This document shows, in pieces, positions 14,732 through 17,221 of a stretch of 64,000 nucleotides of DNA (its first letter is position 1; each line of letters opens with the position of its first letter). The translations under genes and the position numbers were made by a program. Origin of the DNA: Clostridia bacterium (GTDB lineage: Bacteria > Bacillota > Clostridia > TANB77 > CAG-508); NCBI GenBank assembly GCA_022790975.1, contig JAAVYF010000011.1:5158-69157 (forward strand), in the 5' to 3' direction. A model generated the notes under the pieces. It searched no databases and had not been told where the DNA came from. It worked only from the letters and a program-made list of their open reading frames with translations.

Positions 14732-17221
14732 ATGGAAGGTCTAGTATTCTTTAAAAGATTTTATTTAGACAAAGAAAAAGATATTATTATTAATTTATAC
14801 AAATCAAATAAAAATGATGAGGAATTAACTTATATAATAGAAACACCTAATCATGGAACTGGAAATTTAATTTCAAATTTAGCAAAAGTATGTGATGTAA
14901 AAACTACAAAAAATAAAAATGATATGAAAATCATAATAGGAACAATACCAGCTTCATTAAATGCAAATAATGAAACTTTATTTGTTTTTAATCTAAATAA
15001 TAAACATATTGCTACAATTTATGGAGATGGAAAAATAGAACAAAACATTAAAATTCCAGCTATTGTAAAAACTTTAATGTCTCAAACAAAAGACTATAAT
15101 TTAGATATTAATCAAACTTTAATTAATAGTTATATTCTAAAAAAATCAAAATTTAGAACTGACTTACATACTCATTTGTATGCAAACTTACCTTCTGATG
15201 CTCTTATTGCAATTGGAATCAAACATCAAATAAAATATCCATTATATTTTATAAAAAAATTAGGTCTTAAATTATCCAACAAACAAAAAATTGTAATTGG
15301 AAATTATAGAAAAGAAATCGAATTAAAATATATAGATTCTCCTTTAACAGGTAAAACTTTAGAAAGAAAAATCGATGATGAAACTTACATAAATTTTGCA
15401 GATTTTATTTTAAATAATATAGAAAATGCAGAAGAAAATATTAGAAAAATTAGAAATAGCTTATCATTAGTAAAAGATGGTCAGGCTGTTTTTACAAATT
15501 TAGAAAAATTATATGTTTATAGATATGTATTTCAAAAAGGTCAAACTTCAAAAGTTTTAACTAATATAACTTTAGAAAAGATTGAAAAAATACCAGAAAA
15601 TGATATAAAAAATTATTTAATTCAAATGTATGAAGATTCAAAATCTGGAAGTAATTATGAAAACAATACAATTTTACAAGATAATCTTTTATGGCTTGCA
15701 AGAGAATATCAAAAACAAGGTATTGTATATTCAGAAATTGCTTCAACTGATGTATGTAAAAAAGGTATCCCTGGTGCTAGATTTCTAGAACAAATACATG
15801 AAATTCTTCCAAAAGCTAAAGCAGAAACCGGTGTAGATCTAAGATTTTTAGCTGGAATAAGAAGAATTTGGTTATCTCCTAAAGAACAAGCTGAAACTTG
15901 TGAAGTTGCTAAAATCATGGCAAAAAGTCCATATGTTGTAGGTAGTGATATTATTGGAGAAGAAATAACTGATATTGAAGATTTATCATCTATATTAACA
16001 GATTTAGTTAATTTTTCAATAAAAGAAAATAATGGATTTACTATTAGAGTTCACGCAGGCGAAACTGACGCATTTTCTAGCAATGTAGAAAAAGTTGCAG
16101 ATATTATAGATAAAGCAATTGGAAAAAGTAAAATTATACCTAGATGTCGTTTAGGTCATGGGTTATATGGAATTGGTTTAGATGAAGAATCTGATAAAAG
16201 AATAATTAATAAAATAAAAAGAATTGATGCAGTTCTTGAATTTCAATTATCTTCAAATGTAAGACTAAATAATTTAACTAAATTAGAAAATCATCCAATA
16301 AAAACATATTTAGAAAATAATGTTTCTTGTGTACAAGGAACTGATGGATTTGGAATGTATGGAACAGACACTATTGAAGAACAAATTTCTCTTCAAAACT
16401 TACTTAATATAACTGAAAATGACTTTCAAAAAATGAAATTAGTAGAAGAAAAATTAATAAGTGAAAATAAAATTCATTTTGAAAACAAATCAAAAGAATT
16501 CGAAAAATTTTTAAATGGTAGAAGCATAACTGAAGCTATAATTGATGAAGAGTACAATACATTAAAAAATTTAAATATAACTTATGTGGAAAAAAGCGAT
16601 AACAAAATAGATTCTACTGAAAATTTAAAATCTAAAATTAAAGAACTTCCAATCGACAAAGTTCCAATTATAATTGCAGGTGGTAGTTTTAATACAAATG
16701 GAAGAGAAACTGTTGTAAATGAATCTGGAAAGAAAATTATTAGAGATTTAATTAAAAATATTGATAATAATAAAGCATATTTTGTAATTGGTCATAAAAT
16801 GCAAGGATATGAAAAAGCAATTGTTGATATTTCAAAAGAGTTAAATAAAAAATTTGAAATTGATGCAATAATTCCAAAAAGAGTACCTCTTTCTACCAAA
16901 GATTCTTTACTAGACTCTGATGTTGATGGAATTAGAGTTTCAATAGAGCCAGAAGAAGTTGGAATTTACAAAAGTTTTAATTATGAAATATTTGAAAGAA
17001 GAAATTCTATAGTAGTAGCATTTGATGGAAACTCACCAGTTTCAAATTTAGTTCAAGAAGCTAAAAATGGCAAAGGAAAAGCTAAAATATTTGTAAATGG
17101 AGATGTTGAAACATTAAAAGAAAAAGCTAAATCTTTAGGTGGATATGTTGAAGAATTCAATACTGAGCAAAATATCTCTGATAAAATTATAGATTGGAAC
17201 CCTGATTTAAAGCAAAAATAA
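14732..17221 (+). CDS. 829-aa multidomain protein: unknown N-domain, adenosine/AMP-deaminase-like amidohydrolase with a large insertion, and a C-terminal SLOG/LOG-like Rossmannoid domain
   Basis: Deaminase signatures in order: DLHTHL (aa 144-149), SDIIGEE, RVHAGET, LGHG, FQLSSNV, QGTDGFG. The C-terminal ~170 aa reads VPIIIAGGSF...AYFVIGHKMQGYEKA...SIVVAFDGNSPVSNLVQEA, which resembles the Gly-rich loops of SLOG/LOG domains. RBS AAAGGAGG precedes ATG 14732. The gene contains no CGG codon. Confidence 0.7.
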   Translation: MEGLVFFKRFYLDKEKDIIINLYKSNKNDEELTYIIETPNHGTGNLISNLAKVCDVKTTKNKNDMKIIIGTIPASLNANNETLFVFNLNNKHIATIYGDGKIEQNIKIPAIVKTLMSQTKDYNLDINQTLINSYILKKSKFRTDLHTHLYANLPSDALIAIGIKHQIKYPLYFIKKLGLKLSNKQKIVIGNYRKEIELKYIDSPLTGKTLERKIDDETYINFADFILNNIENAEENIRKIRNSLSLVKDGQAVFTNLEKLYVYRYVFQKGQTSKVLTNITLEKIEKIPENDIKNYLIQMYEDSKSGSNYENNTILQDNLLWLAREYQKQGIVYSEIASTDVCKKGIPGARFLEQIHEILPKAKAETGVDLRFLAGIRRIWLSPKEQAETCEVAKIMAKSPYVVGSDIIGEEITDIEDLSSILTDLVNFSIKENNGFTIRVHAGETDAFSSNVEKVADIIDKAIGKSKIIPRCRLGHGLYGIGLDEESDKRIINKIKRIDAVLEFQLSSNVRLNNLTKLENHPIKTYLENNVSCVQGTDGFGMYGTDTIEEQISLQNLLNITENDFQKMKLVEEKLISENKIHFENKSKEFEKFLNGRSITEAIIDEEYNTLKNLNITYVEKSDNKIDSTENLKSKIKELPIDKVPIIIAGGSFNTNGRETVVNESGKKIIRDLIKNIDNNKAYFVIGHKMQGYEKAIVDISKELNKKFEIDAIIPKRVPLSTKDSLLDSDVDGIRVSIEPEEVGIYKSFNYEIFERRNSIVVAFDGNSPVSNLVQEAKNGKGKAKIFVNGDVETLKEKAKSLGGYVEEFNTEQNISDKIIDWNPDLKQK

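Follow-up and report, generated by a model that had tools for sequence, protein, structure and literature searches.

A conserved fusion of an adenosine deaminase-family barrel with a SLOG-fold domain in uncultured gut Clostridia: a candidate ligand-regulated adenine-nucleotide deaminase

Deaminases of the adenosine deaminase (ADA) family act as immune effectors in RADAR, Cad1 and Kongming, and SLOG domains serve as nucleotide-signal sensors in Thoeris ThsA and in TRPM2. One gene in the window, i.e. the whole 64,000-nt stretch of Clostridia DNA analysed here, encodes both kinds of domain in a single protein (here ADA-SLOG). In the initial annotation this gene was proposed to encode a signal-gated defence effector, with a role in purine metabolism as the main alternative, and the fusion was not recognised as a described system. 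The latter agrees with the searchable literature (without the SLOG-defining paper of Burroughs et al. 2015), in which no description of an ADA-SLOG fusion was found; within that scope, the conserved fusion is not previously characterised. The question raised by the locus is which of the two roles the domain architecture, the inheritance and the genomic context of the gene support.

Gene and domain architecture

The open reading frame with its ATG start was confirmed by ORF listing and translation, and the following features were assigned to the locus:

14722..14727, + strand: ribosome-binding site AGGAGG (consensus), 4 nt before the ATG, read from the sequence
14732..17221, + strand: ADA-SLOG fusion ORF, complete, 829 aa; an identical protein (P0001) is present in the database
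14732..15106, + strand: N-terminal beta-rich domain of the model, aa 1 to ~125, without Pfam match
15149..16411, + strand: ADA-family zinc amidohydrolase barrel, aa ~140-560 (Pfam PF00962, PDB sequence and fold matches)
15194..15721, + strand: helical elaboration after HxH, aa ~155-330 (model secondary structure, Pfam profile alignment)
16415..16567, + strand: two long linker helices, aa 562-612, leading from the barrel to the C-terminal domain (model)
16649..17218, + strand: C-terminal SLOG-fold Rossmannoid domain, aa ~640-829, TRPM/LSDAT-like (model and Foldseek)
17568..18353, + strand: histidine kinase (SPOB_a and GHKL, 261 aa), co-oriented downstream (Pfam)

Promoter and terminator scans around the gene were uninformative due to the fact that in such AT-rich DNA the counts equalled those of shuffled sequence. 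In the window and six further loci, neither a riboswitch nor any other Rfam family was found upstream of the gene, i.e. no regulatory RNA linking ADA-SLOG to purine control, which is an observation counter to a purine role.

The ~95 kDa protein was modelled at full length with AlphaFold as three domains (pLDDT 88, pTM 0.88). All motifs quoted in the initial annotation were located in the order given there: DLHTHL at aa 144-149, SDIIGEE at 405-411, RVHAGET at 439-445, LGHG at 474-477, SSNV at 507-510 (preceded by another copy at 449-452) and QGTDGFG at 535-541 in the deaminase part, followed by IIIAGGSF at 646-653, VIGHKMQGYEKA at 685-696 and AFDGNSPVSNLVQEA at 763-777 in the C-terminal part.

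The Pfam A_deaminase profile (PF00962) scored 72.5 bits against a gathering cut-off of 27 (E=4e-20, aa 323-568), which as a sequence match is far beyond chance. The catalytic and metal-binding set H146, H148, H441, E444, H476 and D538 is complete and in order on a (beta/alpha)8 barrel and was invariant across 41-49 homologues, including relatives of 29-32% identity. The modelled barrel matched ADA structures at E~1e-9. Ordinary ADA, ADAL and AMPD/ADGF structures (among them those of snail AMPD/ADGF) ranked above the defence deaminases, with Cad1 at rank 31 or lower and RdrB outside the top 50, and an ADA-family adenine deaminase (3rys) was also among the fold matches. By sequence, an AMPD-family match was obtained only at E=0.55 (9nte) in the PDB search, and the NCBIfam equivalogs of housekeeping Add were missed (NF006848 and TIGR01430, with 62.1 versus 426 and 50.3 versus 216.55 bits, respectively). 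In canonical ADA, the purine and ribose are contacted by an Asp after HxH and by the "TDD" pair. In ADA-SLOG, the second Asp of TDD is a Gly (GTDG), with TDG invariant across the family, and HTHLYAN following HxH reads without the Asp seen in nucleoside ADAs. These two departures suggest that the substrate may not be simple adenosine or AMP. The initial annotation had also placed a ~250-aa insertion after HxH; extra residues are present there, but their number was overstated and amounts to ~100 mostly helical ones. H148 and H441 are separated by 293 aa, compared with ~197 aa between His17 and His214 of mouse ADA, which we take to be their equivalents, and position 78 of the PF00962 profile aligns only at residue 323. 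Behind the barrel, the linker helices of the model span residues 562-594 and 599-612.

The N-terminal ~140 aa, to which nothing had been assigned, indeed matched no Pfam family. The model of this block (pLDDT 81-92) comprises strands at residues 4-11, 19-25, 31-37, 66-76, 82-88 and 91-97 and helices at 45-53 and 110-118, and residues such as Y11, D13, E15-I18 and T38-N40 are strongly conserved in homologues.

The assignment of the C-terminal domain as SLOG/LOG-like was borne out by a confident AlphaFold model (~190 aa, pLDDT 82.8, pTM 0.84), whose best matches are SLOG-superfamily structures. Foldseek was led by the N-terminal domains of TRPM8, TRPM4 and TRPM3, the Moco carrier protein (target-normalised TM score of 0.64-0.70) and LOG (5ajt, 1ydh, 5zbk, 5its and 1t35) at E values of 3e-4 to 1e-2 and a probability of ~1.0; a ThsA structure was not among the top 50. 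No Pfam family, Lysine_decarbox (LOG) included, matched the domain sequence at E<=10, and the sole PDB-profile match, a segment of IMPDH at E~0.02, was rejected as a chance match. The only SLOG-family signal in Pfam came from a remote homologue (P0404), in which LSDAT_prok reached 24.4 bits at aa 611-665, near its threshold of 25.4; this region aligns with the SLOG motifs of protein P0303, and an hhalign comparison of the SLOG-domain alignment with P0404 was not significant. Distant homologues retain the motifs AGGS, GHKMQGYEK, YK, FDG and NGK. When the SLOG profile was used in a word-indexed search, all matches were fragments of the ADA-SLOG family itself. When 1.84 billion representatives were scanned in full with HMMER, 181 matches resulted, and each full-length match scanned was an ADA fusion; since no other effector partner was found there, the scan gave no positive indication of a swappable sensor.

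Inheritance and genomic neighbourhood

The family includes over 100 full-length members with lengths of 815-846 aa. A database search with a word filter gave profile scores at E<=0.001 for 4,660 proteins; the best 120 of these were nearly all full-length fusions, and a single 90%-identity cluster holds 523 member sequences. The mean column identity was 71% across 49 homologues. Between loci, ADA-SLOG is 74-92% identical, compared with 63-90% for the flanking housekeeping genes; between the two major subclades, the values are 59-61% for ADA-SLOG and 45-48% for the neighbouring DapF, and the position of the gene near dapF is kept across subclades. The GC content of 24.3% and GC3 of 7.8% equal the genomic background in this lineage of ~24% GC. 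All three domains are under strong purifying selection, and the gene has been passed on vertically in the uncultured, low-GC Clostridia of the gut. It would appear to be a core gene of this lineage, the loci compared having been chosen for carrying it. No relatives were found on plasmids (tblastn of P0303 against PLSDB), in phages (tblastn of the window protein against INPHARED) or on viral contigs (pattern scan of IMG/VR).

At 5-10 kb upstream of the ADA-SLOG gene, the window contains a type II CRISPR-Cas9 locus that the initial annotation had not listed, and the Ham1 gene at 688..1260 was confirmed (Pfam E=2e-25). The DnaB-like neighbour with iterons is present as a frameshifted DnaB_C-like gene, and all that is found of the iterons is a 13-nt tandem pair at 14483-14513. 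The split neighbour genes are broken by frameshifts, and stop-codon reassignment was rejected as the cause. As had been noted before, no TIR, cyclase or RdrA-like gene is adjacent: none occurs in the window or in the chromosomal-clade loci, and an RdrA-type ATPase was missing from the window and 30 related loci.

The downstream histidine kinase (HATPase_c_5 E=3e-18, SPOB_a E=1e-6) is intact; an N-terminal truncation was considered and rejected, since the 319-aa call in a related locus (L001) is over-extended. Each of the nine loci in the subclade of 74-100% identity has a kinase downstream of the deaminase (3.4 kb away in L009), and no locus outside this subclade has one; membership of the kinase in the deaminase unit is uncertain. 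Relative to the flanking genes, the deaminase-kinase pair has opposite orientations in L001 and in the window, and a search for inverted repeats explaining this returned only low-complexity AT-rich matches. That the window's own subclade has this kinase beside the deaminase, and not purine genes, is a further observation counter to a purine role.

The recurrent neighbours in other lineages are housekeeping genes of nucleotide metabolism. In five loci, all from one subclade, guaB-guaA lie directly downstream of ADA-SLOG, separated from it by a hairpin; due to this hairpin and the restriction to a single subclade, the adjacency may reflect synteny and not an operon. A Ham1 gene follows directly in L013 and L017 and keeps the catalytic Asp ("DSG") of an active-type enzyme. 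In L024, a NUDIX-pyrophosphatase fusion is located 23 nt upstream and a DUF402 gene downstream, and a Chlamydiales homologue shares its operon with a NUDIX gene. Remote homologues occupy syntenic housekeeping contexts with RadA/CvpA on one side and MlaEF/Alr on the other.

Rare distant homologues with 29-32% identity and the same three-domain layout are located on mobile elements carrying Mob_Pre/TnpV or PcfJ/NikA. In this clade the gene is part of a conserved three-gene operon, X - ADA-SLOG - Y, with Y overlapping. One of these operons (L033) adjoins AbiLi (PADLOC E=1e-44), and only at this locus a weak ThsB-like TIR fragment (E=3e-5) is found ~7 kb from the homologue. Apart from a weak Zn_dep_PLPC match (E=0.003), X, Y and an X-like gene could be assigned to no family in either Pfam or PADLOC, and homologues of X and Y were found neither in the window nor near its relatives. 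A patchy, horizontal and island-borne or mobile distribution, as is typical of defence genes, is seen in the distant clade. The loci compared from the window's clade show synteny with housekeeping genes, conservation no lower than that of the flanks and native composition, and no known defence partner of the gene was seen nearby. The presence of same-architecture relatives on mobile elements beside defence genes is likewise counter to a purine role.

Candidate functions

The reading that ADA-SLOG is a ligand-regulated adenine-nucleotide deaminase feeding IMP and GMP synthesis is given slightly better than even chances. The purine-metabolic alternative of the initial annotation fits the guaBA, Ham1, NUDIX and DUF402 neighbours better than a defence role does; only its version with a LOG-type nucleosidase is disfavoured. 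For the substrate, the direction of flux, the ligand and a regulatory rather than catalytic SLOG domain, we infer the following scheme. The barrel would convert AMP, or ATP/dATP, to the inosine form. If ATP/dATP were the substrate, the ITP product could be cut to IMP by Ham1 or NUDIX enzymes. IMP would then be supplied for GuaB/GuaA-dependent GMP synthesis, by which adenylate and guanylate pools would be balanced. By analogy to the control of eukaryotic AMP deaminase by ATP and GTP, the SLOG domain may act as a non-catalytic allosteric nucleotide sensor.

That the protein is instead a fixed single-gene abortive-infection effector, in which SLOG senses an infection-derived nucleotide and the deaminase depletes ATP/dATP to ITP/dITP, is considered unlikely. 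The architecture put forward for a signal-gated effector holds, and it parallels Cad1 with its Rossmann-type sensor and ADA domain (PMC11645235). The only PADLOC match of the family is CARF_ADA (E=1e-7), through the ADA part only (model positions 307-558 of 605). The defence idea is kept alive by the distant mobile-element homologues, one of them beside AbiL and a TIR-like gene, and the mobile clade has the same SLOG pocket motifs as the chromosomal one; an origin in a conflict system, or a residual role of that kind, is possible. For the gene in the window, a defence role is disfavoured by vertical inheritance in synteny, conservation above that of DapF, native composition and the lack of X, Y, TIR, cyclase and RdrA partners. 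The housekeeping neighbours, the negative searches of the phage, plasmid and viral-contig collections, and a barrel closer to metabolic ADAs than to Cad1 or RdrB also argue against it. A broader proposal carries a similarly low probability: ADA-SLOG would be an undescribed superfamily of ligand-gated deaminases, the mobile X-Y operons a new conflict system, and the window copy a fixed single-gene, signal-triggered (d)ATP-to-(d)ITP switch for immune or stress growth arrest and not a constitutive metabolic enzyme.

A bifunctional salvage or catabolic enzyme, in which SLOG as a LOG/PpnN-type N-glycosidase would split AMP to adenine and ribose-5-phosphate and the barrel would deaminate adenine to hypoxanthine, is less probable still. 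LOG enzymes and the adenine deaminase 3rys are among the respective structural matches, and a free base would be a fitting substrate for a barrel that lacks the ribose-binding Asp behind HxH. The top fold matches of the C-terminal domain, however, are non-catalytic TRPM and Moco-carrier SLOG domains, and its only Pfam signal is that of LSDAT_prok in the remote homologue, with no LOG match. The catalytic motif of LOG is PGGxGTxxE. The equivalent segment in ADA-SLOG is FDGNSPVSNL, without Glu at the catalytic position, in a by-eye alignment on the strand and helix order of the model, and the absence of the motif disfavours the nucleosidase.

The SLOG domain of TRPM2 binds ADP-ribose. A deaminase acting on ADP-ribose, an NAD-derived or another signalling adenine nucleotide recruited by SLOG, for signal turnover, the handling of damaged cofactors or counter-defence, is very improbable. 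In its favour, the atypical TDG suggests non-canonical purine recognition, two unrelated lineages have NUDIX partners, those members that are carried by conjugative elements could serve as anti-defence cargo, and binding of ADPR derivatives or variant cADPR has been described for several SLOG clades (PMC9503650). ITP/IDP clean-up would account just as well for the NUDIX and Ham1 partners, and the guaBA adjacency speaks for bulk purine metabolism.

Should the deaminase be gated by SLOG, a dedicated allosteric sensor would be seen for the first time in a bacterial purine-nucleotide deaminase, and gut Clostridia and Chlamydiales-like bacteria would have in ADA-SLOG a route from ATP/AMP to GMP. 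Homologues are common in gut and other metagenomes, with 523 members in a single cluster, and the function is therefore relevant to how common, uncultured bacteria of the gut manage their nucleotides. The rare relatives on mobile elements offer a candidate for a new module of defence or counter-defence that can be tested by experiment, and they illustrate how immunity and metabolism may exchange components.

Comparison with known systems

The best sequence and fold matches are the canonical PF00962 deaminases (ADA1, Plasmodium ADA, ADAL/MAPDA and ADGF-type AMP deaminase), with which ADA-SLOG shares the barrel, HxH, HAGE, GHG and the final Asp. They comprise ~350 aa, whereas ADA-SLOG has 829 aa with N-terminal, helical and SLOG additions, and they have TDD and an Asp after HxH where ADA-SLOG has TDG and no Asp. 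Eukaryotic AMP deaminase resembles ADA-SLOG in the proposed regulated conversion of adenine nucleotide to IMP upstream of GMP synthesis, but its regulatory domains are unrelated and an AMPD-family sequence match is lacking.

With Thoeris ThsA (SIR2-SLOG) and the TRPM/LSDAT proteins the SLOG Rossmannoid fold is shared, the TRPM N-terminal domains being the top matches. In those proteins the fused effector is SIR2, TM or Macro and not a deaminase, and the window has no ThsB/TIR partner. Kongming (KomA-KomB-KomC) contains a catalytically dead HAM1, with Asp changed to His (bioRxiv 10.1101/2024.12.20.629578), and a SIR2 effector, whereas the Ham1 neighbours in L013 and L017 keep their Asp and no SIR2 gene was seen in the annotated ADA-SLOG neighbourhoods.

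RdrB (catalytic residues H152/H154, H498, E501 and H530; PMC9994260) is likewise an ADA protein of ~800-900 aa; it too is extended at the N-terminus, has its HxH close to residue 150 and carries an insertion that splits the catalytic core. ADA-SLOG differs in having neither an RdrA partner nor an insertion after the last catalytic His, in lacking a match to the RdrB HMM in PADLOC, and in its SLOG domain, which does not occur in the description of RdrB (PMC9994260). Cad1, the CARF-ADA fusion that acts as ligand-gated ATP deaminase of type III CRISPR (PMC11645235), shares with ADA-SLOG an ADA barrel fused to a Rossmann-type ligand sensor. This sensor is an N-terminal CARF domain in Cad1 and a C-terminal SLOG domain in ADA-SLOG, and Cad1 is linked to type III CRISPR, whereas the ADA-SLOG gene is vertically inherited and core-like in a window with type II Cas9 only.

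Domain architecture of the ADA-SLOG protein

The reading frame that the initial annotation had described as a deaminase fused to a SLOG domain is real, all motifs quoted there were found in the same order, and a consensus AGGAGG is located 4 nt 5′ of the start codon in the window sequence:

14732..17221, plus strand: ADA-SLOG fusion gene, 829 codons, ATG start

Pfam A_deaminase was matched by aa 323-568 with 72.5 bits (cut-off 27, E=4e-20). The NCBIfam 'adenosine deaminase' equivalogs were matched too, with scores well short of their cut-offs (62 vs 426 bits), and the protein is therefore, as judged by sequence, a divergent ADA-family protein rather than an ordinary Add enzyme. 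The nearest solved structures by sequence were Plasmodium adenosine deaminases (E 3e-11, family profile). An invariant TDG is present where canonical ADA has TDD and the Asp after HxH is missing, which warns that substrate recognition may be atypical.

A full-length AlphaFold model built on 41 homologues was confident and compact (pLDDT 88, pTM 0.88) and showed the following organization:

aa 1 to ~125: beta-rich N-terminal domain
aa 143-148: strand at which the ADA barrel begins, bearing the HxH motif
aa ~155-330: mostly helical elaboration
aa 562-612: two long linker helices
aa ~640-829: C-terminal alpha/beta domain

H148 and H441 are spaced by 293 aa and the equivalent residues of mouse ADA are ~197 aa apart, so that the insertion after HxH amounts to ~100 aa and not to the ~250 aa initially annotated. 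Foldseek searches with the whole model returned canonical ADA, human ADAL, bacterial and Plasmodium ADA, snail AMPD/ADGF and ADA2 (E ~1e-9 to 1e-7); Cad1 first appeared at rank 31 and RdrB was not among the top 50 matches.

The C-terminal domain was additionally modelled alone (pLDDT 82.8, pTM 0.84). Its best PDB matches belonged almost all to the SLOG superfamily and comprised the N-terminal domains of TRPM8/4/3/2, Moco carrier proteins (target-normalised TM 0.64-0.70) and LOG/YvdD proteins. The SLOG assignment thus holds at the level of the fold, while profile searches gave no sequence-family match for this domain of the window protein itself. Transitive backing may come from P0404, a remote homologue from a Chlamydiales MAG with the same order of ADA and C-terminal domain, in which aa 611-665 gave a near-threshold match to Pfam LSDAT_prok ('SLOG in TRPM'); these residues are exactly the stretch in which P0404 lines up with the family motifs AGGS and GxxxQGxEK. 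The LOG catalytic motif is PGGxGTxxE; in a by-eye alignment the corresponding segment is FDGNSPVSNL and lacks the Glu, which together with the TRPM and Moco carrier matches favours ligand binding over a glycosidase role.

When 1.84 billion representative proteins were scanned in full with HMMER, the SLOG-domain profile gave only 181 matches, and every full-length match that was Pfam-scanned carried an ADA domain. This SLOG subtype therefore appears to be obligately coupled to the deaminase and not to be a swappable sensor. Three proteins matched the whole SLOG profile in a local search (E 1e-31 to 1e-36) and carry no ADA domain, namely P0345 (261 aa), P0366 (318 aa) and P0369 (385 aa); these could be stand-alone SLOG proteins or contig-end fragments.

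Conservation and genomic context in gut Clostridia

Full-length homologues (815-846 aa, 55-82% identity) are numerous in uncultured gut Clostridia from human, rabbit and ruminant hosts, and a single cluster at 90% identity comprises 523 member sequences. Mean column identity was 71% over 49 sequences, with strong conservation of all three domains. Between the compared loci, all of which were chosen for carrying the gene, pairwise identity of the fusion protein (74-92%) tracked or exceeded that of common flanking housekeeping genes (mean 63-90%), and across the two major subclades it was 59-61% vs 45-48% for the neighbouring DapF. GC content (24.3%) and GC3 (7.8%) of the gene match the genomic background (25.4±2.9% and 10.6±2.0%), and no relatives were found in INPHARED phages, PLSDB plasmids or IMG/VR contigs. 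For loci selected in this way, these features point to vertical inheritance under strong purifying selection and do not resemble those of a mobile defence gene.

Neighbourhoods were compared across 30 loci. A histidine kinase gene lies 3′ of the deaminase gene in the window's own subclade (74-100% identity) and in no other, and in the window and L008-L011 this pair is inverted as a unit versus its flanks, relative to locus L001:

14321-18942, plus strand in the window: inverted deaminase and histidine kinase unit (L001 9836-13611)

The flanks consist of DnaB_C-like and UDG genes on one side and dapF/YkuD on the other. The inverted pair lies on the plus strand and most other window ORFs of at least 150 aa on the minus strand; a search of the flanks revealed no convincing inverted repeats. 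In five loci of another subclade (L004, L005, L016, L028, L029) the ADA-SLOG gene is directly followed, on its own strand, by guaB (IMP dehydrogenase) and guaA (GMP synthase), and then by dapF, which also adjoins the gene in the window's subclade; the position has thus been conserved since these subclades separated. In two loci (L013, L017) a Ham1-family ITPase gene with the catalytic Asp kept lies directly 3′; the defensive KomB-type HAM1 has His at this position (bioRxiv 10.1101/2024.12.20.629578). Locus L024 carries two further partners:

L024 9124-9972: NUDIX-inorganic-pyrophosphatase fusion, 282 aa, ending 23 nt upstream of ADA-SLOG
L024 13151-13684, strand opposite to ADA-SLOG: DUF402 gene, downstream

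Further neighbours across the 30 loci were RuvB, QueH, TruA, HPF, SpoIIE and cell-wall enzymes. Among the window neighbours PADLOC detected no defence genes except a type II Cas9, 5-10 kb off. The nearby features of the window are:

4374-7794 and 9473-9648, cas9 on the minus strand: type II CRISPR-Cas locus
4828..7794, minus strand: larger cas9 ORF, 988 aa (PADLOC Cas9, E=2e-158)
4374..4844, minus strand: ORF for the Cas9 C-terminus (E=5e-12), overlapping the larger ORF
688-1260, minus strand: Ham1-family ITPase (Pfam, E=2e-25)
2833-3483 and 11855-12331, minus strand: two uracil-DNA-glycosylase-superfamily genes
12742-14320, 18943-19609 and 4374-7794, minus strand: frameshifted genes for a DnaB_C-like helicase, dapF and cas9

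The CRISPR-Cas locus, whose array at 9473-9648 holds three or more ~36-nt repeats at 66-nt spacing, is missing from the syntenic position in L001. Ham1 and the two uracil-DNA-glycosylase-superfamily genes share 15 kb with the deaminase gene and are tied to it by proximity alone. The helicase is split into 391 and 142 aa (514 aa in L001) and dapF into 106 and 100 aa (vs ~240-280 aa), the latter appearing split in L010 and L023 too. Stop-codon reassignment was rejected as the cause of the three split genes since the breaks are frameshifts, which reflect either assembly indel errors or true gene decay; the deaminase gene with its 829 codons is intact. Two AT-rich tandem repeats were observed, one of 15 nt (TTTAATACTTATATC, 4-5 copies) at 18426-18485 just 3′ of the kinase gene, and one of 13 nt in two copies at 14483-14513 in the 411-nt spacer 5′ of the deaminase gene. 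This 13-nt pair probably corresponds to the iterons of the initial annotation.

Distant relatives in mobile elements and diderm bacteria

A more distant group comprises about a dozen proteins (830-1012 aa). They share 29-32% identity with the window protein and 42-52% with the query protein P0303, and retain all ADA motifs including TDG as well as the SLOG motifs. Their genes lie in a conserved three-gene operon:

L030 1-4063, L032 1-4090, L033 8445-13190, L035 8521-13173: X, ADA-SLOG (860-1012 aa), Y

X (~323 aa) shows only a weak N-terminal match to Zn-dependent phospholipase C, Y (~157 aa) overlaps the fusion gene and has no family match, and an X-like gene of ~160 aa is optionally added. 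The operon-bearing contigs carry Mob_Pre/TnpV (L030) or PcfJ/NikA-like conjugation genes (L035), and the L033 operon precedes genes for a MazG-like protein and a Schlafen-type helicase, together with AbiLi (PADLOC E=1e-44) and a TIR fragment resembling ThsB. This setting is typical of conflict systems, and the operon is a candidate for a new one. The window contains no homologue of X or Y.

Diderm bacteria also harbour relatives of ADA-SLOG, which are very distant (22-25% identity):

L036/L037 8202-14232, L038 1448-8277, L040 169-5316: very distant ADA-SLOG relatives

In the Chlamydiales MAG, genes for a 596-aa protein, ADA-LSDAT and a NUDIX protein (481 aa) are separated by gaps of at most 8 nt and apparently form an operon, and two other contigs share a RadA/CvpA ... 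MlaF/MlaE/Alr (alanine racemase) neighbourhood.

Proposed function and comparison with known systems

The recurrent partners guaBA, active Ham1, NUDIX-pyrophosphatase and DUF402 suggest an inosine-nucleotide product for the route from IMP to GMP, in line with the purine-metabolic alternative of the initial annotation. The evidence is best matched by a regulated purine-nucleotide deaminase, a reading to which we give an about even chance. The protein would be a core enzyme of this lineage, either from the outset or as a later development. The inosine nucleotide would pass to IMP and from there to GMP, either after direct deamination of AMP or after deamination of ATP/dATP followed by ITP hydrolysis, and the SLOG domain would most likely provide allosteric control by a nucleotide.

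A defence effector, as initially favoured and here fixed in the lineage, is unlikely in view of vertical inheritance and strong purifying selection in the window's clade and of the missing X and Y; identity, composition and the lack of relatives in the phage, plasmid and viral-contig collections searched do not resemble those of a mobile defence gene. A bifunctional enzyme of the LOG type is distinctly improbable, given the Glu-less segment of the by-eye alignment and the TRPM and Moco carrier proteins as best matches. Deamination of ADPR-type or signalling nucleotides was considered very improbable.

Full-text searches on SLOG/LSDAT and deaminases, and the Aravind-group surveys consulted, gave no mention of an ADA-SLOG fusion; a passing mention in the 2015 paper that defined the SLOG superfamily is conceivable. 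For deamination at the level of ATP, RdrB (PMC9994260) and Cad1 (PMC11645235) provide precedents. We regard ADA-SLOG as a deaminase of the ADA family whose regulatory architecture is new.
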